Shown: piece by piece, positions 1,793-11,369 of the stretch
How the letters are laid out: each line of letters begins with the position of its first letter
How positions within the stretch are numbered: position 1 is the first letter of the stretch
Source of the DNA: Geosporobacter subterraneus DSM 17957
Lineage (GTDB): Bacteria; Bacillota; Clostridia; Peptostreptococcales; Thermotaleaceae
NCBI RefSeq assembly: GCF_900142145.1
Contig: NZ_FQZV01000042.1
Location: forward strand, 1-24,000
Length of the DNA: 24,000 nt
Direction: 5' to 3'
The notes under the pieces: generated by a model
Told to the model about the DNA's origin: nothing
What the model saw: the letters and a program-made list of their open reading frames with translations, nothing else
The model's database searches: none
Made by a program: the position numbers and the translations under genes

Positions 1793-3022
1793 TTACTCCT
1801 GACTATCGGCCCGAAGAATTTTTGGCGCTCTCGGTGCTCTTAACCGATGGGCAGAATGAAGGTCCGATCCCAATAATGGTCTTAAATAGGATTTAAATGC
1901 AGAGGTAACATTGGTACCCTCTGGCGTGATAAATTCGTCGGGCATCAGCTTTGTCTTGGCTGCCACCTGGTGCAGCGGTGTTATCCGATAATCTACGGAA
2001 TAGTCCCCTGTTCTATGGATCGTAATGGAACCGTCGATGTTGTGCCAAATCGCAAATTGTGCTGCCTTTTCTCCAACTTCTCTGGCTTCATGCTGATCTA
2101 CATCGGAAACACATCCAAAGAAAGAACGCTGTAAATATCCAAAGGTATCCGACCTTACACGCTTAATATTTAATCTTTCCTTCACAAGATTTGCCAGCAG
2201 ATCCCCTAATGCGCCCGTACCTGACAGAATTGCATTGCCATGGGCATCCTTTTCAACATTATTTGTTAATCCAAGGGCTATTGGTTCCCCTTTTTCATTT
2301 ACAATTCCTTCTGATACTGCAATGAGACATCTTCCATGCTTCTCATATATGCGCTTAACGTCGCTTAGGTATTGATCCACGTTAAAAGGTCTCTCAGGAA
2401 GATAAATTAGATGGGGACCATCATCGGGATATTTTTGGGCCATTGATGAAGCAGCTGTTAAGAATCCGGCATTTCTTCCCATGATAACACCGATATGCAC
2501 CCCGGGTAGGGCTCTATTGTCAAGGTTTAATCCGATAAAAGCCTGTGCCACAAATTTCGCCGCAGAACCGTATCCGGGAGTATGATCATTAACCATCAAA
2601 TCATTGTCAATAGTCTTAGGAATATGGATCGCTCTAAATTCGTAATCCGATTGCTCTGCCTGTTCGTTAACGATTCGTACAGTATCTGCAGAATCATTTC
2701 CACCTATATAAAAGAAATATCTTACATCATGGGCTTTCAATACATTGAAAATTTCCTTACAGTATTTCACATCCGGTTTATCCCTTGTAGAAAATAGTGC
2801 AGAGGATGGGGTTACGGCTACCTGCTCCAAATTGTGAGTTGTTTCCTGGGTCAGATCCAGAAAATCTTCATTCACAATTCCGGCCACACCGTTAATAGCG
2901 CCATAAACCTTCGACACCTGTTCAAATTTTCTTGATTCCAGCACGACACCTACCAGCGATTGATTAATAACTGCAGTTGGTCCTCCCCCTTGTGCTACGA
3001 CAACCTTTCCATCTAACTTCAT
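1793..3022 (-). CDS. pfp: 6-phosphofructokinase family protein, possibly pyrophosphate-dependent (409 aa)
   Basis: N-terminal GGGPTAVIN nucleotide loop, GGNDS and PKTIDND motifs, MGR(N)AG motif. Lys in PKTIDND is the residue associated with PPi-type enzymes. RBS AAGGAGG upstream of the ATG. Confidence 0.8.
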   Translation of the reverse strand: MKLDGKVVVAQGGGPTAVINQSLVGVVLESRKFEQVSKVYGAINGVAGIVNEDFLDLTQETTHNLEQVAVTPSSALFSTRDKPDVKYCKEIFNVLKAHDVRYFFYIGGNDSADTVRIVNEQAEQSDYEFRAIHIPKTIDNDLMVNDHTPGYGSAAKFVAQAFIGLNLDNRALPGVHIGVIMGRNAGFLTAASSMAQKYPDDGPHLIYLPERPFNVDQYLSDVKRIYEKHGRCLIAVSEGIVNEKGEPIALGLTNNVEKDAHGNAILSGTGALGDLLANLVKERLNIKRVRSDTFGYLQRSFFGCVSDVDQHEAREVGEKAAQFAIWHNIDGSITIHRTGDYSVDYRITPLHQVAAKTKLMPDEFITPEGTNVTSAFKSYLRPLLGSDLHSAHRLRAPRAPKILRADSQE

Positions 3023-3134: not shown

Positions 3135-3164
3135 TAGTTTGATTTTTTAGAAATTTCTCTACAC

Positions 3165-3200
3165 AAAAAGACACCCCATGTTCTAATTCCATGAAGTGTC
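3165..3200 (-). terminator. Intrinsic terminator closing the PTS operon
   Basis: GACAC(3170-3174)/GTGTC(3196-3200) and CATG(3177-3180)/CATG(3190-3193) stems with a 9-nt loop. T-run on minus (A-run 3165-3169 on plus). Lies 19 nt after the HPr stop. Confidence 0.65.
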
Positions 3201-3218
3201 CTATAGCGTGCTTCTTCA

Positions 3219-3488
3219 CTAATCAATTTCTTGCTCTAATATGCTGATCAGTTCCTTTACTGCGGCTTCTTCATCCACACCACTTGCAGTGATTGTCAGC
3301 TGATCGCCTTTGTAAACCCCTAGGCTTAATATGGATAAAATGCTTTTGGGATTACAGCTTTTTCCCAAATCTCCGTTTTTGATCATCTTAAGATCTGACT
3401 GATATTTATTGGCAGCTTTTGAAAACAGCCCTGCTGGCCTTGCATGCAAGCCATTGGCATTTTTAACGATGATGGAAGCTTCTACCAT
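3219..3488 (-). CDS. ptsH: HPr-family phosphocarrier protein (89 aa), operon-encoded
   Basis: Active-site motif NGLHARPAG (His15 equivalent) and KSILSILSLG (Ser46 equivalent). RBS AAGGGGGA 8 nt upstream of the ATG. Confidence 0.9.
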   Translation of the reverse strand: MVEASIIVKNANGLHARPAGLFSKAANKYQSDLKMIKNGDLGKSCNPKSILSILSLGVYKGDQLTITASGVDEEAAVKELISILEQEID

Positions 3489-3506
3489 TGCTGTATTCCC
3501 CCTTTA

Positions 3507-4769
3507 CTAATCCACTGATTTATTTGCTAACAAGTATTCCTCCGCTTCTGCTGACCATAGTCCGTTATGCCTCTCCACAATTCGGCTAAGCTCTGCAAAA
3601 AACGGATCTTCCTTTCCTTTTTTCTCAAAATCTTCTATGGCAGTCAGTTCCATTTCAACATTGCAGTAAACCAACTTCTTTCCTCCAGGAATTTCCGGAA
3701 GGTTCAAGGTTGTATCGATCACACTGTCCAATCCCCCTACATGGGTAACCATTACAGCCGGATTAATCAAACCTTTAGCTGACATTTCCAAGGATTCGAG
3801 CATATCGTCTGCATTTCCACCGGTGGAACCCATGATATGGGTAGGTGTGTAGTGCACATTATAAAAGTTTACTTCTGCTTTGAACTGGGTATCTGTGGGA
3901 CCTGCAAAAAAGTTGAGGCATCCATCCTTACCCAGGATGGCATCTGCATCCTCTATCACTGAACGTACCGGAGCATAGACAAATACGTCATCAAACCCGG
4001 TTCCATCTGTCAGCTCCTTTAGATAAGCTGCTGAGTTTTCCAGCTCCCTCGTATTCACATAGTGGAGCTTCACACCATTCCGCAGCCCTTCCTCTACAGG
4101 GAAGAGCTTTTCTGCCCGCTTCAATCGTTCATCATCAATATCTGTGACTACCAGCATTCCCGGCTTTCTATCGCAGTGCAGGGCATAGTCGATAGCCCCC
4201 AGGCCCATGGGCCCGCAGCCTGCAAGGAGGGCCATTTTCCCTCCCTTTACAATACCCATGTGGTGTACATATTTGCCTGTCTCCGTATGATAATTTGAGT
4301 GAAATCCACCGATAACGCAGGACATGGGTTCCGCTAAGGAAGCTTCATAGAAGCCTTTTCCTTCATAGTTAAGCAAAAACCCTAACTCCATTACTTCCTG
4401 CGGGATAATGATATAGGTTGCATTGCCGCCAAAATAAGGATAGGAATAACCGGGAGCATAGGGGCTCCCTTTATAATTAAGGGCCGGCTGCAGTGCAAAT
4501 TTTTGACCCGGCTTAAACTGATGCTGCCACTTCTTTCCTACCTGAACAATAACGCCAGCAAATTCATGTCCTATAATCGTTGGATTCTCAGCAATATCCT
4601 CAGGTACACGCTTGTGTTTATTTCCTAAGATTACAGCCTTATAGGTTGACATACAAATACTATCTGAAACCACTCGGGCTAATATTTCATCCTCCCGAAT
4701 CTCCGGAAGCTCAAACTCTTCTAATCGTAAATCCCTTTCTCCATATAATCGTACAGCTCTTGTTTTCAT
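3507..4769 (-). CDS. Zn-dependent medium-chain dehydrogenase, L-sorbose-1-phosphate-reductase (SorE)-like (420 aa)
   Basis: GHEFAGVIVQVG zinc-ADH signature, Cys in SDSICMS, GCGPMGLG Rossmann motif, and unusually long (about 420 aa) like SorE-type enzymes. Start set to ATG 4769 (MKTRAV...), preceded by GGAGGG. The 5-codon upstream extension overlaps that RBS. Confidence 0.8.
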   Translation of the reverse strand: MKTRAVRLYGERDLRLEEFELPEIREDEILARVVSDSICMSTYKAVILGNKHKRVPEDIAENPTIIGHEFAGVIVQVGKKWQHQFKPGQKFALQPALNYKGSPYAPGYSYPYFGGNATYIIIPQEVMELGFLLNYEGKGFYEASLAEPMSCVIGGFHSNYHTETGKYVHHMGIVKGGKMALLAGCGPMGLGAIDYALHCDRKPGMLVVTDIDDERLKRAEKLFPVEEGLRNGVKLHYVNTRELENSAAYLKELTDGTGFDDVFVYAPVRSVIEDADAILGKDGCLNFFAGPTDTQFKAEVNFYNVHYTPTHIMGSTGGNADDMLESLEMSAKGLINPAVMVTHVGGLDSVIDTTLNLPEIPGGKKLVYCNVEMELTAIEDFEKKGKEDPFFAELSRIVERHNGLWSAEAEEYLLANKSVD

Positions 4770-4787
4770 GATTTCTCCCTCCATAAG

Positions 4788-5723
4788 CTAACAATACACG
4801 GTTTTAATGTTAACTTGCTCTTTTAAATATTCTACTTGTTCTAAGGTTCCCATTTTAGTTCCTTCATTGCTAATTGTAGCCGCAGCTGCTGCCACAGCCA
4901 GCTTTATACCCTCTTCAAGAGTCATTTTTTTACTGACCGCATAGGCCAATGCACCAACCATAGAGTCACCTGCCCCTACGGTGCTCTTCACATCTATCTT
5001 CAGCGCTTCAGCAACGAAAGCTTTATCTCTGGTGACAAACACACTTCCCTCTTCTCCCATAGAAACCGCTATGATCTCAATGCCGGTCTTCAATAAGGAT
5101 TGTGCTGCCTCAATGATCTGCTCAGTTGTTTCAATTTTTCTTTCCATATACATTTCCAACTCATGTATATTAGGCTTAATCATATAAGGACCTGCCTTAA
5201 TCCCTTCCCGAAGTGCCTCCCCATCAGCATCCAGGATGGCTTTTATTCCCTTTGATTTAGCGATTGCTATCCACTTTCCGTAGATGCTCTTCTCCACATT
5301 TTGAGGTGTGCTGCCGGAAAATACAATCACATCATTTTCTGTCATAGGGCCAAACACTGAATCTTCCAGCTCCTTGAGCGCCTTTGCTGAAACAGGGGCC
5401 CCTGGCTCATTAATATCCGTATACAGACATTTCTCTTTATCGACAATCTTAATATTTGTTCTTGTGTTGCCTTCTACCTCAACAAATTCATGTTTGATAC
5501 CCATTTGGTCTAACTGGGAACGTATTTGTGCACCGGTGTGTCCTCCAAGAAATCCTGTGGCCAAGGTTTCACCTTGAAGATTTCGAATCATTTTTGAAAC
5601 ATTAATGCCTTTTCCCCCGGCATCTACTCTTTCTTGACAAACCCGATTCACACTTCCCTCTTTTAGTGTATCTAATACAATGGTCTTATCCATTGCAGGA
5701 TTTAGCGTAACTGTAATAACCAT
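4788..5723 (-). CDS. fruK: 1-phosphofructokinase / PfkB-family ketohexose-phosphate kinase (311 aa)
   Basis: MVITVTLNPAMDKT N-terminus, GGKGINVS, and C-terminal TVGAGDSMVGA (PfkB signature 2). RBS AGAGGAG upstream. Confidence 0.85.
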   Translation of the reverse strand: MVITVTLNPAMDKTIVLDTLKEGSVNRVCQERVDAGGKGINVSKMIRNLQGETLATGFLGGHTGAQIRSQLDQMGIKHEFVEVEGNTRTNIKIVDKEKCLYTDINEPGAPVSAKALKELEDSVFGPMTENDVIVFSGSTPQNVEKSIYGKWIAIAKSKGIKAILDADGEALREGIKAGPYMIKPNIHELEMYMERKIETTEQIIEAAQSLLKTGIEIIAVSMGEEGSVFVTRDKAFVAEALKIDVKSTVGAGDSMVGALAYAVSKKMTLEEGIKLAVAAAAATISNEGTKMGTLEQVEYLKEQVNIKTVYC

Positions 5724-5750
5724 AGAATCGCTCCTCTAGTTTTCCATATC

Positions 5751-7646
5751 CTATTTCTTAGTAAAGAGTGTATAAACATATTCTAAATCTTCTGTTGTCT
5801 TAAGACGCTCTGCAATCTCATCTTCCTCCATAATAGAAGCCAGATTAGATAAAATAGCTAAATGCTCATTGCCCACGCCTGCGATTCCCACAACCAGATA
5901 AGCTAGCCCTTCGCCAAAGTCTACGCCATCGGGAAACTGGAGGATGGAAATACCAGTCTTTCGAATTTGCATTCTGCCGCTGGCTACTCCGTGAGGTATG
6001 GCAATCCCATTGCCTATATAGGTGCTCAGATCATTTTCCCGTTGAATCATTGCATCGATATATTCCTCAGCCACATATCCGCTGTCTGCTAACAAGCGTC
6101 CAGCCATTTTAATGGCTTCCATCTTCTCCACGCTTCTTTGTCCTAAAAGAATATTCTTTTTCTGCAGTACAGGCAATTCTTCAGTGCCGATCGGCTTTAC
6201 CTGGGATTCCTGCTGCTTCTCTTTGATTTCCACAAGGCGCTCTACCAATAAATCATATACAGGGTTTTCTATGAAATCCTGAATAGAAATATGCTCTGCC
6301 TGCGGAGCTGCCAATTTGGCTCTAGCCGTTAGATTCTCATGAGTTATAACAATCTGGGCATCCTCCGGTATATTTTCAATTGCGTCATTGCTAACCTGCA
6401 CATGTATGCCCTGCTTCTTAAGTTTATTGCGCAGCGTACTTGCTCCCATAGCACTGGAACCCATTCCGGCATCACAAGCAAAAACAATCTTTTTTACCGC
6501 GACATTTAATTTAATTGCTGTTTCTGTCTCGGTTTTCTTTCCCTTCATACCCTGAAGCTGTGTTTTTGCAGCTTCCAATTTTTCTTCATCTGCTGCATAA
6601 CCCCTTGCTTTTATGATCGGCGCAGAGAGGAAGAAGGTTACGGCAGTAGATACTAAGACTCCCGCCAGCACGGCCAATAATCCACCCCGTGGTGCCATAG
6701 CCATAAGGGCAAAAATACTACCCGGTGAAGGTGTTGCCACCAGTCCTGCGCCTAAAAGCGCAAAGGTGAATACACCGCTGGCGCCTCCCGCAATCACAGG
6801 AATAATCAGTAAAGGATTCATTAAAACATATGGAAAATAAATTTCATGAATCCCGCCTAAAAAGTGAATGATAATCGCCCCCGGTGCAGATTGCTTGATC
6901 ATTCCTTTTGCAAATACATAGTAAGCAAGCAGCAGGCCTAACCCAGGTCCGGGATTTGTTTCCAGCAGGAAGAAGATAGATCTTCCCGTTTCAGTAGCCT
7001 GTTGCATTCCCATAGGGCCCAGCACCCCATGGTTTAGTGCATTGTTCAAGAACAATATCTTTGCCGGTTCAATCACCAAAGAGGCAATCGGCAGCAGACC
7101 TACATTTACTACTGTCTCTACTGCACCTTTTAGAATCAGGTTAAGGGACAGTACAACAGGGCCTATGACTTTGTAGGCTGCCACAGCTAAAACTGCACCC
7201 ATAATCCCTACAGAGAAGTTATTCACCAGCATCTCAAATCCTGCCGGTACCTTATCTTTCAACATATCATCTACTTTACGCATCACAAATCCGCCCAAAG
7301 GCCCCATGATCATTGCTCCAAGAAACATGGGTACATCAGCGCCTACAATTACCCCTGCAGTTGCAACGGCTCCTAAAACTCCGCCGCGAAGATCTCCAAT
7401 CATTTTGCCTCCCGTGTATCCAATCAAAATCGGAAGCAAATAAATGATCATCGGTCCCACCAGCTTCGATAAATTCTCATTTGGCAGCCAACCGGTAGGA
7501 ATAAACAACGCCGTTATCAGTCCCCAGGCAATAAATGCTCCGATATTCGGCATCACCATTCCACTCAAAAATCTGCCCATTCGTTGTATATTCAAACGCA
7601 TCTTACCCGATGCATGCATTTCATTCGTGTTAACTTGCGTTTCCAT
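5751..7646 (-). CDS. mtlA: PTS mannitol-family transporter subunit EIICBA (631 aa)
   Basis: MPNIGAFIAWGLITALFIPTGW and HFLGGIHEIYFPYVLMNP (MtlA-type EIIC). EIIB Cys motif FACDAGMGSSAMG. EIIA His motif GNGIAIPHG. Start set to ATG 7646, 8 nt after AGGAGG. The track start is a GTG inside the RBS. Confidence 0.9.
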   Translation of the reverse strand: METQVNTNEMHASGKMRLNIQRMGRFLSGMVMPNIGAFIAWGLITALFIPTGWLPNENLSKLVGPMIIYLLPILIGYTGGKMIGDLRGGVLGAVATAGVIVGADVPMFLGAMIMGPLGGFVMRKVDDMLKDKVPAGFEMLVNNFSVGIMGAVLAVAAYKVIGPVVLSLNLILKGAVETVVNVGLLPIASLVIEPAKILFLNNALNHGVLGPMGMQQATETGRSIFFLLETNPGPGLGLLLAYYVFAKGMIKQSAPGAIIIHFLGGIHEIYFPYVLMNPLLIIPVIAGGASGVFTFALLGAGLVATPSPGSIFALMAMAPRGGLLAVLAGVLVSTAVTFFLSAPIIKARGYAADEEKLEAAKTQLQGMKGKKTETETAIKLNVAVKKIVFACDAGMGSSAMGASTLRNKLKKQGIHVQVSNDAIENIPEDAQIVITHENLTARAKLAAPQAEHISIQDFIENPVYDLLVERLVEIKEKQQESQVKPIGTEELPVLQKKNILLGQRSVEKMEAIKMAGRLLADSGYVAEEYIDAMIQRENDLSTYIGNGIAIPHGVASGRMQIRKTGISILQFPDGVDFGEGLAYLVVGIAGVGNEHLAILSNLASIMEEDEIAERLKTTEDLEYVYTLFTKK

Positions 7647-7671
7647 GTAAAACACCTCCTATATTTCTGAT

Positions 7672-9783
7672 CTACATCATCTTCTGCTGATAAAATCGTC
7701 CCAGGATTAAGCTAAGATCATTAAATATCTCTTCCTTTGATCCTTCTATAATCGCTGCTGAAAAACGATCGTTTTCAATCAATCCCTTCGTGATTTCACT
7801 TAATACTTCCAAGGCGACTTTCTCTGCATCGTAAGGTGCCAGCATCACAGTTCCCGCTTGGATTTTTTGGACTTCTCCCTCTATACCGCTTATATAGATG
7901 GGATTTGCCAGTCGAAATGCAGCAAAATAAAGCTCCTTCACTACTGTCGTTCGACAATGCAATAGCATAATCTCTTTTTGCTTTAATAAGGTACTGCCTT
8001 GTTTTTCTCTATTTTTCAAATCCTCATAAAGCTTGTTTCGCTTTTCAGAACCCTCAACGAACCTATTGCTTATCTCTTCGATTAAAGAATCCACATCTGC
8101 TGCATCAACGGCTTCTAATAACTTAAAATGGTCTAGAACCTGCAGGATTCTTTGATTGCATATACTCAACATCTCAAATTTTTCTTTTAGATGCAGGCCG
8201 CTCTGCTTTGAGCTTCCTTGCTCCTTTTGTCCGGCAGAAAAGTTCCGGATAAAGGTCTCCAAGTTTTTTTGATCTTCTTGATGAAGAAGTGGATTTACCA
8301 TAATATACGGAAACTGACAATCTGGTATATGGGTGGTAGCAATAATAAAATCAATTCCAGCTTCTGTGAGATTTTCCTCGTATAGGTTAATAATCGAAAT
8401 CAAATCTACAATCTCCAAATTGCTAAACTCTTTTTCTATTCTGCTGGAAAGCAGTCTCGATGCACCGATTCCGCTTGTACAGGCGATTGCCACCCGATAC
8501 TTAATTTGACGTTCCTTTTTCTTCTGCTCTACTACAGCACCCAAATGCATTGCTATATATCCAATCTCAGACTCCGGTACCTTTATAGCTTCTTGATCTT
8601 CAATGACCCTTACACACTTTCTTGCAGTTTCAAAGAGTTTGGGATAAAAGTCCTTGATCTCCTCCAGCAGCGGATTCCGGATGTCCAGATTCAACTTGAT
8701 CCGGTTAATCGCCGGCCCCAAATGCTGTACAAGGCCCAGCAATAATTTATCATTTTCCTCCAAATAACAGCCTGTTTCCATTTCAGCAATATGCATCATC
8801 TTTTTGGCCAGGCGCACCAGTTTAAAATCCTCAGTAATAGAGCTCTCACTGTTGTTAAAAATATTTCTTCCCTTAGAGCCCTTCAAGTGCATGGTGATAT
8901 AGCCGATCTCCGCCGATGGAATCTCTACGTTAAAAACCCCCCCGATAGTACGGGCCAGTTCTTTCGCAATAGCAAATTCCTTTGTACTGCGCAGCTGCTG
9001 CAAAATAGCATCATCCATGACAATCTTTTCATTATTGCGGATACGCTGCAGTGCAATGGCCAGGTGTACGATCAAGGCTGAGTAAGCATCGTCAGCCAAT
9101 TGATATCCCAAGGGCTTTTCAATTTTCTTGATAAGCACTTCTAATTTTTCAACAATATCAGGATTAATAAAATCATAAATTGGATTTTGCGTAACAGGAT
9201 TTATGGCAGGCCTTTCAGCTGCAGCTTTATCCGCCCGTTTGCCGATTAAGTTCAATACTTGGTTTTGTCCGGCATTCTCATAGAATATATCCGTCACGGC
9301 ACGCCGTATATCCTTCTCCCTGCCTTCAATGAAAATACCTAAGCCAGGCTTACGAATCAATCTCAGATGGTATTTTCTTAACCGTTCTTCGATCTTATCC
9401 AGATCATGGCTTAAGGTTCCTTCCGTTACATGAAACATCCGAGTGAAATAATAGATTTTTGTTATTTCATTATTCATAAGCAGTTCACTCAGCATCATCG
9501 CCTGTCTCTCTTCAGGCGTAAAGCTTTTCTCTACCTTCTCGTTCTGGAGTAGTGCAATAATATTCTCCCTTGCTTTCTGTCCCTCGTTGAGTCGAATGCC
9601 CGTTCCCTTTTTCGTCTCCAGCGCATACCCTTTCGCTGCAAGCCATGTCTCAACGGCAGTCAGCTCCCGTAAAATGGTGCGGGAACTGACCTCCAATTGA
9701 TTACTGATGGTTTCAATCGTTATATATTCATTTTGTTGGCATAGAATCTGAATGATTTGTTTTGTACGGGAACTGATATTCAT
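7672..9783 (-). CDS. mtlR: MtlR-type PRD-domain transcriptional activator (HTH, PRD1, PRD2, EIIB-Gat-like, EIIA-Mtl-like; 703 aa)
   Basis: N-terminal HTH. Four PRD histidine contexts (LIVHLAIAL, ITMHLKGS, LVQHLGPA, IAMHLGAV). EIIB-like Cys (IACTSGIGASRL). C-terminal EIIA-like region (MLLHCRT). Sits between two Mtl-type EII genes. Confidence 0.85.
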   Translation of the reverse strand: MNISSRTKQIIQILCQQNEYITIETISNQLEVSSRTILRELTAVETWLAAKGYALETKKGTGIRLNEGQKARENIIALLQNEKVEKSFTPEERQAMMLSELLMNNEITKIYYFTRMFHVTEGTLSHDLDKIEERLRKYHLRLIRKPGLGIFIEGREKDIRRAVTDIFYENAGQNQVLNLIGKRADKAAAERPAINPVTQNPIYDFINPDIVEKLEVLIKKIEKPLGYQLADDAYSALIVHLAIALQRIRNNEKIVMDDAILQQLRSTKEFAIAKELARTIGGVFNVEIPSAEIGYITMHLKGSKGRNIFNNSESSITEDFKLVRLAKKMMHIAEMETGCYLEENDKLLLGLVQHLGPAINRIKLNLDIRNPLLEEIKDFYPKLFETARKCVRVIEDQEAIKVPESEIGYIAMHLGAVVEQKKKERQIKYRVAIACTSGIGASRLLSSRIEKEFSNLEIVDLISIINLYEENLTEAGIDFIIATTHIPDCQFPYIMVNPLLHQEDQKNLETFIRNFSAGQKEQGSSKQSGLHLKEKFEMLSICNQRILQVLDHFKLLEAVDAADVDSLIEEISNRFVEGSEKRNKLYEDLKNREKQGSTLLKQKEIMLLHCRTTVVKELYFAAFRLANPIYISGIEGEVQKIQAGTVMLAPYDAEKVALEVLSEITKGLIENDRFSAAIIEGSKEEIFNDLSLILGRFYQQKMM

Positions 9784-9818
9784 TAGGATCAGCTGCCTTT
9801 CAAATAATTTATCTGAAA

Positions 9819-11228
9819 TTATTTTAGCTGCTGAATAAGTTCATCATACTGTTTGCCATCAACAAAATTCTGGATAGACATATGATCTGCATGAGGTACT
9901 TTCTCTTTTGCTCTAGAAGTCAGGCTTTCATGTGTAATCACCATCTGTGCATCCTGCGGAATATCATCAATCGAAGTATTCACTACCTGGATGTTTAGCC
10001 CTGCCTTCTTCAGCTTGTTTCTCAAAGTAGTAGCTCCCATGGCACTAGAACCCATTCCGGCATCACAAGCAACGACAATTTTTTGAATCTTCGTGTTTTT
10101 CACCTTGCTTATTTCTGCATCCACATCTTTCTTTCCTTTTAATGTCTGGGTCTTTTCTTTTGCTGCAGCAAACTCTGTTTCACTCTCTTCACCGGTTCCT
10201 CTCTTAATAAAGAAGGCGGCTACAAAGAAGCTCACTGCCGCAGATACAGCTACACCCAATATCACCGGCAGAAAGCCTCCCTTTGGTGTCATGGCAAGCA
10301 GTGCAAAGATACTTCCCGGTGAAGGTGTTGCGATAAGCCCGGCACCCAATAAACTGAAAGTAAATACTCCACTGGCACCGCCGGCAATCACTGCTAAAAT
10401 CAGCAATGGATTCATCAGCACATATGGGAAATAGATTTCATGAATACCGCCTAGGAAGTGTATGATCACTGCACCTGGCGCAGATTGTTTAACCATTCCC
10501 TTGGAAAATACCCAGTAGGCCAATAATATCCCTAGGCCTGGCCCCGGATTGGTCTCTAACAGGAAGAATATAGATTTTCCTATTTCATTAGCCTGTTGAA
10601 TGCCTAAAGGCCCTAAGACCCCATGGTTGATAGCATTATTCAAAAATAGTATCTTACCTGGCTCGATAAACACAGAGGTTAAAGGCAGCAGCCCTGCATT
10701 CACAATCCCTTCTACTCCGGTCTTCAAGAAGTTATTAAGCCCCAGTACGATAGGGCCTATCCCTAAATAAGCCACCAATGTGATGATCATTCCTATGATC
10801 CCTGCTGAAAAGTTATTTACCAGCATTTCAAATCCCGCAGGCACCTTTCCGTCTACCCATTCATCGAACTTCTTGATGCAATAGCCCCCTAAAGGACCCA
10901 TGATCATAGCGCCTATGAACATAGGAATATCTACCCCTACTACGACCCCCATGGTTGCTACAGCACCAAGCATGCCGCCTCTGGTCCCTGCAACCATCTT
11001 ACCGCCGGTATAACCGATCAATAATGGCAATAAGTACAATATCATAGGTCCGACCAGCTTAGATAAATTTTCATTCGGTGTCCAGCCTGTAGGTATAAAT
11101 AATGCAGTAATCAATCCCCACGCAATAAAAGCCCCGATATTTGGCATTACCATTCCGCTTAAAAACCGTCCAAATTTCTGTACTGAACCTTTCATGTCCT
11201 TTTGTGAATAAGCTGTGGCTGTTGACAT
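9819..11228 (-). CDS. mtlA: PTS mannitol-family transporter subunit EIICB (469 aa, no EIIA domain)
   Basis: Same EIIC signatures as 5751-7646. EIIB motif VACDAGMGSSAMG. Ends after EIIB. RBS GGGAGGG upstream of the ATG. Confidence 0.9.
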   Translation of the reverse strand: MSTATAYSQKDMKGSVQKFGRFLSGMVMPNIGAFIAWGLITALFIPTGWTPNENLSKLVGPMILYLLPLLIGYTGGKMVAGTRGGMLGAVATMGVVVGVDIPMFIGAMIMGPLGGYCIKKFDEWVDGKVPAGFEMLVNNFSAGIIGMIITLVAYLGIGPIVLGLNNFLKTGVEGIVNAGLLPLTSVFIEPGKILFLNNAINHGVLGPLGIQQANEIGKSIFFLLETNPGPGLGILLAYWVFSKGMVKQSAPGAVIIHFLGGIHEIYFPYVLMNPLLILAVIAGGASGVFTFSLLGAGLIATPSPGSIFALLAMTPKGGFLPVILGVAVSAAVSFFVAAFFIKRGTGEESETEFAAAKEKTQTLKGKKDVDAEISKVKNTKIQKIVVACDAGMGSSAMGATTLRNKLKKAGLNIQVVNTSIDDIPQDAQMVITHESLTSRAKEKVPHADHMSIQNFVDGKQYDELIQQLK

Positions 11229-11300
11229 AATATCCCTCCCTCAGATTTATTCATTTTTGATCATGACATGTCATTTTAAAAATACTTAAGTATTGATTTC

Positions 11301-11369
11301 ATTATATGTTGATATTCCAAGGCCTACAAGCCAAAGATATGTAGTTGTGTCACTATACAAAAGTGACAA
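11301..11369 (-). promoter_or_regulatory. Candidate activator-dependent promoter plus inverted-repeat operator for the PTS operon
   Basis: Read on minus: ATTGTCAC-N9-GTGACACAA inverted repeat (11369-11345), then TTGTAG (11329-11324), 17-nt spacer, TATAAT (11306-11301). Confidence 0.5.

Follow-up and report, generated by a model that had tools for sequence, protein, structure and literature searches.

The stretch of DNA analysed here, called the window throughout, comprises 24,000 nucleotides of Geosporobacter subterraneus DSM 17957 (contig NZ_FQZV01000042.1, positions 1 to 24,000 of the forward strand), and the subject of the analysis is a single transcription unit on its minus strand (3161-11369) that reads, in order, operator and promoter, EIICB(Mtl), an MtlR-type activator, EIICBA(Mtl), FruK, a Zn dehydrogenase, HPr and a terminator. 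The six genes, all on the minus strand, run from 11228 to 3219 with gaps of 3-35 nt between them, and their identities were assigned from Pfam and NCBIfam profile scores against curated cut-offs. One minus-strand operon extending from a promoter/operator to a terminator had been proposed in the first-pass annotation, and both boundaries as well as the six genes were found as placed. Most likely, this is a mannitol phosphotransferase system (PTS) operon in which the usual enzyme MtlD has been replaced, and in which mannitol-1-phosphate is converted through fructose-1-phosphate to fructose-1,6-bisphosphate (FBP). The features of the operon are as follows, in the direction of transcription.

11345 to 11369, minus strand: inverted repeat TTGTCAC-N9-GTGACA(CAA), from a reading of the sequence similar to an MtlR operator, 15 nt upstream of the -35
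11301 to 11329, minus strand: putative promoter with a weak -35 TTGTAG (11329-11324), a 17-nt spacer and a perfect -10 TATAAT (11306-11301)
11263 to 11293, minus strand: 5' leader containing a pair of small palindromes, ATACTTAAGTAT and ATGACATGTCAT, that lie past the -10 and before the ribosome-binding site
9819 to 11228, minus strand: mtlA, mannitol-family PTS EIICB, 469 aa (TIGR00851, 550 bits, cut-off 468; NF011663, 732 bits)
7672 to 9783, minus strand: mtlR, PRD-containing activator, 703 aa (Pfam domains HTH_11, Mga, two PRD and an EIIA_2-like domain)
5751 to 7646, minus strand: EIICBA(Mtl), second permease fused to the operon's only EIIA(Mtl), about 631 aa (NF011663, 811 bits, cut-off 589)
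4788 to 5723, minus strand: fruK, 1-phosphofructokinase, 311 aa (TIGR03828, 352 bits, cut-off 292)
3507 to 4769, minus strand: YggP/SorE-type NAD-dependent Zn dehydrogenase, 420 aa (ADH_N and ADH_zinc_N), proposed mannitol-1-phosphate 2-dehydrogenase (fructose-1-phosphate forming)
3219 to 3488, minus strand: HPr paralogue, 89 aa, carrying the motifs GLHARPA (His-15) and KS(I) (Ser-46) (PF00381, 93 bits)
3161 to 3202, minus strand: intrinsic terminator with a 13-bp stem (3168-3202), a 9-nt loop and a U-run

The zinc dehydrogenase, FruK and the missing MtlD

Generally, MtlD oxidises mannitol-1-phosphate at C5 to fructose-6-phosphate. The canonical Firmicute operon mtlA-mtlR-mtlF-mtlD shares with the window its permease family, its PRD activator, its operator type and its gene order up to the dehydrogenase slot. 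Unlike the window, it carries the long-chain mannitol-1-phosphate 5-dehydrogenase MtlD; the window has a Zn-dependent enzyme of the medium-chain dehydrogenase/reductase (MDR) type and FruK instead, and its EIIA is fused to the second permease. The dehydrogenase fills the mtlD slot of the mtlA-R-F-D order. The operon lacks MtlD, and the genome (3.86 Mb in 119 contigs, 100% estimated completeness) gave no NF002652 match at E <= 1e-40. The genome has only two genes of the Mannitol_dh family (PF01232): one encodes the tagaturonate reductase UxaB (708 bits with NF002969), the other is a 537-aa gene beside uxuA. The earlier description, in which the operon has other enzymes "instead of MtlD", agrees with this absence from the genome.

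The open reading frame of the dehydrogenase extends to 4784, and its likeliest start is the ATG at 4769, with the ribosome-binding site GGAGGGAG 6 nt upstream, which yields the 420-aa protein; this choice is based on homologues that begin with MKT and on a 420-aa member of a database cluster, taken as the window's own product. No NCBIfam equivalog matched the protein. More than 8000 close homologues are found, mostly in Clostridia, under the name "zinc-binding dehydrogenase" or the automatic name "L-sorbose 1-phosphate reductase", and the best named matches come from Defluviitalea saccharophila (80%), a Candidatus Epulopiscium metagenome-assembled genome (80%) and Vallitalea okinawensis (77%). 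YggP of Escherichia coli K-12 (425 aa) is 56% identical over 420 aa with one gap. YggP-type is a better label for the enzyme than the first-pass "SorE-like", the closest named relative being YggP.

Among 82 family members, the Zn ligands C44, H73, E74 and E152 are invariant, as are D215 and the residues K49, H57, R59, K369 and K370. The location of D215 behind the second Rossmann strand (beta-2) indicates NAD over NADP, and K49, H57, R59, K369 and K370 are candidate phosphate-binding residues. An AlphaFold2 model (predicted local distance difference test score, 93.6) has the polyol-dehydrogenase MDR fold with a helical C-terminal extension, and the solved structures most similar to it, those of butanediol, sorbitol and threonine dehydrogenases, share 17-22% sequence identity; a fold match obtained from such a model would carry no information on substrate specificity. 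No solved structure was found for the family, and the nearest PDB sequences are sorbitol dehydrogenase and ketose reductase (E ~1e-12).

The kinase encoded between the second permease and the dehydrogenase passes the 1-phosphofructokinase model and lies far under the other models, namely LacC (173-177 bits, cut-offs 410-469) and PfkB 6-phosphofructokinase II (158 bits, cut-off 353). It had also been argued earlier that the lack of a tagatose-bisphosphate aldolase speaks for a fructose product, an argument that we judge weak. In addition, the genome has a separate canonical fruR-fruK-EIIA-EIIBC-HPr operon on contig C110, and its FruK shares 47% identity with the one in the window, which represents a second paralogue. 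The canonical fructose route resembles the one proposed for the window in its last step, the conversion of fructose-1-phosphate to FBP by FruK; it differs in that its fructose-1-phosphate comes from PTS fructose uptake, whereas that of the window would come from polyol phosphate oxidation. The genome has yet another FruK-like gene, the third, on contig C22 (4798-7547, locus L013); it scores 290 bits with TIGR03828, slightly below the cut-off, and adjoins a sigma-54 activator and a serine-dehydratase-alpha-like gene.

Genomic contexts and phylogeny of the dehydrogenase

With a family threshold of at least 43% identity, the dehydrogenase was found in 102 of 400 sampled Clostridia genomes, and the surroundings of 80 of these genes (about 20 kb each) were compared by clustering the neighbouring open reading frames and annotating the frequent clusters. 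In the Mtl-PTS context, the gene stands with mtlA-mtlR-mtlF, sometimes with fruK and sometimes with HPr and Enzyme I. The dominant context consists of a DeoR regulator, the dehydrogenase, the E2, E3 and fused E1 of a 2-oxoacid/acetoin-type complex, and a short-chain dehydrogenase/reductase (SDR) that passes the sorbitol-6-phosphate dehydrogenase model. The other two of the four main contexts join the dehydrogenase to a following FGGY kinase, or combine it with a SorC-type regulator and a class II aldolase. The dominant operon was seen at L044 (2738-11573, for instance), L053, L067, L076, L083 and some 33 further loci, with the alpha and beta parts of E1 fused into 823 aa, a lipoyl acyltransferase as E2 and the SDR at 370 bits against a cut-off of 307; in these sister clades (about 65-70% identical) a sugar-phosphate enzyme pair is tied to an acetoin/pyruvate-dehydrogenase-like complex in strict anaerobes.

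Operons of this kind are widespread: besides the window, ten further Clostridia loci carry the dehydrogenase with Mtl-PTS genes. The gene lies directly 3' of mtlA-mtlR-mtlF at L043, L057, L060 and L088, while fruK intervenes between mtlF and the dehydrogenase at L048, in D. saccharophila, at L068 (where the contig ends inside mtlF) and at L051 (where mtlA and mtlR are fragmentary). The order is mtlR-EIICBA-fruK-dehydrogenase in V. okinawensis and fruK-dehydrogenase-DeoR-EIICBA at L086. Among the 11 Clostridia operons of this type, fruK is included in the window and in six others (L048, L051, L068, L086, D. saccharophila, V. okinawensis), and the four genomes without an operonic copy carry FruK elsewhere.

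A maximum-likelihood tree groups all Mtl-PTS-linked enzymes in a single clade (SH-aLRT 100), distinct from the clades tied to the E1/E2/E3 complex, to FGGY kinases and to class II aldolases. The clade was retained after the addition of D. saccharophila, V. okinawensis and E. coli YggP, and 12 of its 14 rows are Mtl-PTS-linked. One member, at L092 (G192:C1, 3768-10579), has no adjoining PTS; it neighbours a protein of the type I phosphodiesterase family as well as an ABC system for sugar uptake.

Of 399 sampled Clostridia genomes, 18 were seen in a census to carry an Mtl-type EIIC. True MtlD is encoded in six of the 18, a YggP-type enzyme beside the EIIC in eight and both in none, the rest being fragmentary or different, so that Mtl-PTS genomes with the YggP-type enzyme outnumber those with MtlD in this sample. 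Two additional genomes (G194 and G372) have the dehydrogenase with Mtl-PTS genes and escaped the census, because one is affected by a contig end and the other has a fragmentary mtlA. As for the kinase, fruK is present in none of the six canonical mtlA-mtlR-mtlF-mtlD operons.

An apparent co-occurrence of MtlD and the dehydrogenase, seen in 54 of 65 Clostridia scored as MtlD-positive by NF002652 at E <= 1e-40, was rejected as an artefact of MtlD-like paralogues. Twenty of those loci were inspected, and only six matches exceeded the curated cut-off, all of them in mtlA-R-F-D operons; the other 14 were, in all but two cases, MtlD-like paralogues with no adjoining Mtl-PTS gene. Such paralogues (31-40% identical to E. 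coli MtlD and under the NCBIfam cut-offs) are common in Clostridia and mostly unlinked to a mannitol PTS (also L135, L138-L146), and naive counts of "MtlD" are inflated by them. In two genomes, a paralogue of this kind lies directly between a DeoR regulator and a SorE-like enzyme (L046, G039:C9; L107, G073:C35).

The cluster cmtB-cmtA-yggP-yggF-fumE-yggC of E. coli K-12 is comparable with the window in that a Mtl-family EIICB (CmtA, 56% identical to the window EIICB) lies directly beside YggP and no MtlD is present in the cluster. YggP is annotated as a putative zinc-binding dehydrogenase and falls inside the Mtl-PTS-linked clade. In contrast to the window, the cmt cluster has no MtlR-type PRD activator, fruK or HPr, and contains the fructose-1,6-bisphosphatase YggF, FumE and the P-loop protein YggC. 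Moreover, it is regarded as cryptic, while the operon of the window looks, judging from its sequence, fully functional and self-contained.

Substrate, regiochemistry and the proposed route

In the proposed route, the Mtl-family PTS, made up of EIICB, EIICBA with the sole EIIA and the operon HPr, would import mannitol as mannitol-1-phosphate. The YggP/SorE-type NAD-dependent Zn dehydrogenase, replacing MtlD, would then oxidise C2, next to the phosphorylated carbon, to give fructose-1-phosphate, which the operon FruK would turn into FBP. Expression would be driven by the MtlR-type PRD activator from the conserved operator upstream of the weak -35. A passage from a hexitol-1-phosphate through fructose-1-phosphate to FBP without MtlD had been suggested in the first-pass annotation, and the absence of MtlD, the replacement in its slot, the mutual exclusion, the fruK linkage and the case of D. 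saccharophila all support it; we infer the C2 regiochemistry from the known chemistry of the family and from the FruK linkage.

With respect to that chemistry, SorE, the reductase of L-sorbose-1-phosphate, reduces the C2 keto group of L-sorbose-1-phosphate to give D-glucitol-6-phosphate, and L-sorbose-1-phosphate differs from D-fructose-1-phosphate at C5 only. Application of the SorE stereochemistry to D-fructose-1-phosphate leads to D-mannitol-1-phosphate, as the configuration of the C2 hydroxyl agrees. Like the window enzyme, SorE is a Zn-MDR protein of about 410-425 aa, and it acts at the C2 carbonyl beside the C1 phosphate in the reverse of the direction proposed here. Unlike it, SorE belongs with a sorbose PTS of the mannose family and with a sorbitol-6-phosphate dehydrogenase, neither of which was seen here, and is physiologically reductive; on the sequence side, the comparison draws on automatic names of homologues. 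Klebsiella SorE may also reduce fructose-1-phosphate to mannitol-1-phosphate; the argument here is drawn from the stereochemistry instead.

Mannitol is strongly inferred to be the substrate. Over 465 aa, the EIICB of the window shares 62% identity with the characterised MtlA of E. coli, and both window permeases pass the mannitol-specific EIICB model TIGR00851 (550 and 523 bits, cut-off 468). In addition, the mtlR of the window shares its position and domain architecture with the mtlR of canonical mtlA-R-F-D operons, and repeats of the type TTGNCA-N8-11-TGNCAA lie upstream of the D. saccharophila, V. okinawensis, L048 and L088 operons and also precede the canonical mtlA-R-F-D operons L130, L131 and L133. 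The homologues are often auto-annotated as "L-sorbose 1-phosphate reductase", the two permeases are diverged (67.5% identity) and could mean two substrates, and the dehydrogenase family serves several other sugar contexts, all of which would suit Mtl-type permeases shifted in specificity towards glucitol, L-sorbose (with sorbose-1-phosphate reduced to glucitol-6-phosphate) or a rarer polyol. Such a shift seems unlikely, however, in view of the MtlA-like permease that passes mannitol-specific models and of a regulator and operator of the canonical mannitol type. Furthermore, no sorbitol-6-phosphate dehydrogenase (NF009050) passed the cut-off of 307 bits in the genome (highest score 183 bits), in D. 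saccharophila or in V. okinawensis, and a sorbose or glucitol-6-phosphate route would therefore have no exit. D-glucitol-1-phosphate would also have the wrong C2 configuration, as derived from the SorE stereochemistry, and the mannitol fermentation of Defluviitalea (see below) fits the operon. The earlier choice of "mannitol, glucitol or another polyol" is accordingly narrowed to mannitol, mainly by the identity to MtlA, the MtlR-type operator and the missing sorbitol-6-phosphate dehydrogenase.

The operon of D. saccharophila (CP121687.1) is laid out as EIICB, MtlR, EIIC-EIIA, FruK, dehydrogenase, HPr and Enzyme I; its genome has no MtlD, and its single FruK lies inside this mannitol operon. 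The type strain has been reported to ferment D-mannitol and not D-fructose. Vigorous mannitol fermentation was also described for Defluviitalea phaphyphila, and the pathway legend of its authors names "MPDH" and "FRUK" without comment; the "MPDH" gene could not be matched to the YggP-type family.

These data also bear on whether the dehydrogenase might be a non-orthologous analogue of MtlD that oxidises C5 and yields fructose-6-phosphate. The PfkB-family kinase of the operon would then serve otherwise, for example as an ATP-dependent fructose-6-phosphate kinase where a pyrophosphate (PPi)-type phosphofructokinase (PFK) is otherwise relied on, and a gene for such a PPi-type PFK does lie immediately downstream. 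Mannitol-1-phosphate is chemically symmetric except for its phosphate, so that sequence cannot give the regiochemistry, and the four operons without fruK would agree with a C5 oxidation as well. Nevertheless, we regard this explanation as quite unlikely: the kinase is over the 1-phosphofructokinase cut-off (352 against 292) and far under that of PfkB 6-phosphofructokinase II (158 against 353), canonical MtlD operons lack fruK in all six cases, SorE, with the only characterised activity in the family, works at the carbon adjoining the phosphate, and D. saccharophila keeps its single FruK in the operon though the type strain ferments no fructose.

The direction of the reaction can be considered in the same way. 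The characterised relative SorE is a reductase, and sister clades of the window enzyme co-occur with MtlD-like paralogues, so that in those clades a shunt from fructose-1-phosphate through mannitol-1-phosphate to fructose-6-phosphate is conceivable; an enzyme that mainly reduces fructose-1-phosphate to mannitol-1-phosphate, as a redox valve or for mannitol synthesis, would make the operon not primarily catabolic. This appears very improbable for the window, where an MtlR-type activator governs the joint transcription of the gene and the uptake permeases, where the genome has no MtlD and the locus no mannitol-1-phosphatase partner, and where FruK uses up fructose-1-phosphate and does not supply it. 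The oxidation of mannitol-1-phosphate at C2 followed by the FruK step remains the most likely reading of the operon.

Several observations weigh against this route. E. coli mtlD mutants are not known to grow on mannitol despite cmt-yggP, a cluster regarded as cryptic. Four operons of the new type have no fruK, and YggP, L088 and L102 sit on long branches of the tree. Enzymes about 70% identical stand in other contexts (DeoR-E2-E3-E1 with an SrlD-like SDR; FGGY kinases), and no more than four positions distinguish the clades, so that substrate specificity is unreadable from homology. The genome of D. saccharophila is not confirmed to come from the phenotyped type strain, and it also encodes a fructose-type EIIC. 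Moreover, no enzyme assay was found in the literature for YggP or any of the other enzymes in the PTS(Mtl)-linked clade.

On balance, it seems probable that the YggP-type clade encodes a mannitol-1-phosphate 2-dehydrogenase, and hence a second, undescribed PTS mannitol route that in Clostridia would be at least as common as the MtlD route. Mannitol serves brown algae as a main storage carbohydrate and is often encountered as a polyol in guts and sediments. If the proposal is correct, it would give a function to E. coli yggP and the "cryptic" cmt cluster, and surveys that score mannitol use by MtlD (EC 1.1.1.17) or mannitol 2-dehydrogenase alone would systematically miss the route, with many mannitol fermenters mis-scored, the brown-algae-fermenting Defluviitalea among them. 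Likewise, new names would be needed for thousands of proteins that are called "L-sorbose 1-phosphate reductase" or "threonine dehydrogenase-like". The PTS product would reach glycolysis at FBP via fructose-1-phosphate, bypassing PFK, which may matter where there is dependence on a reversible PPi-type PFK. No description of a route from mannitol-1-phosphate to fructose-1-phosphate was found in the literature; for YggP there is one open-access paper with a passing mention only, and one fish-gut study debates the presence or lack of MtlD.

Regulatory DNA, permease pairs, HPr and the downstream gene

The promoter of the operon was not picked up by a consensus scan because its -35 TTGTAG matches the consensus at only 3/6 positions. 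As read from the sequence, this weak -35 fits an activator-dependent promoter, in which such a -35 is usual. The element CACTTAAGTG of the leader recurs in that of D. saccharophila and in that of V. okinawensis, and GACATGTC is kept in D. saccharophila. The conserved palindrome, in the form ACTTAAGT, was recognised in both relatives. The palindromes ACTTAAGT and GACATGTC were also considered as catabolite-responsive element (cre) sites and rejected, as they do not fit the cre consensus. At the other end of the operon, the terminator hairpin has a folding energy of -22 kcal/mol (z = -5.1), and none of 200 shuffled sequences folds as well.

The PPi-type PFK gene immediately downstream of the operon (1793-3022; NF010675, 486 bits) has its own promoter, TTGAAC-17-TATAAT, located past the operon terminator, which places this gene outside the operon. 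It adjoins an operon that would bypass PFK through fructose-1-phosphate.

The open reading frame of EIICBA extends to 7655, and its likeliest start is the ATG at 7646, behind the ribosome-binding site AGGAGG. Its PTS_EIIA_2 domain covers residues 496-633 of the protein and is fused, not free-standing. Two Mtl-type permease genes flank mtlR in the window and in D. saccharophila (L123:2868-4256 and 6412-7971). The two permeases of D. saccharophila are 87% identical to each other, and the second has no recognisable IIB domain, while the operon of V. okinawensis has one Mtl-type permease only. The permease pairs suggest repeated duplication or gene conversion.

The presence of a dedicated HPr had been called unusual in the earlier reading, a view that is not upheld by the rest of the genome, which encodes HPr nine times as a separate protein and twice within fusions of about 680 aa, and has two genes for Enzyme I; in the operons of relatives, moreover, the HPr slot also holds Enzyme I. 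The set of general PTS proteins in this genome is unusually large and is spread over contigs C37, C110, C58, C26, C49, C81, C50 and C67.

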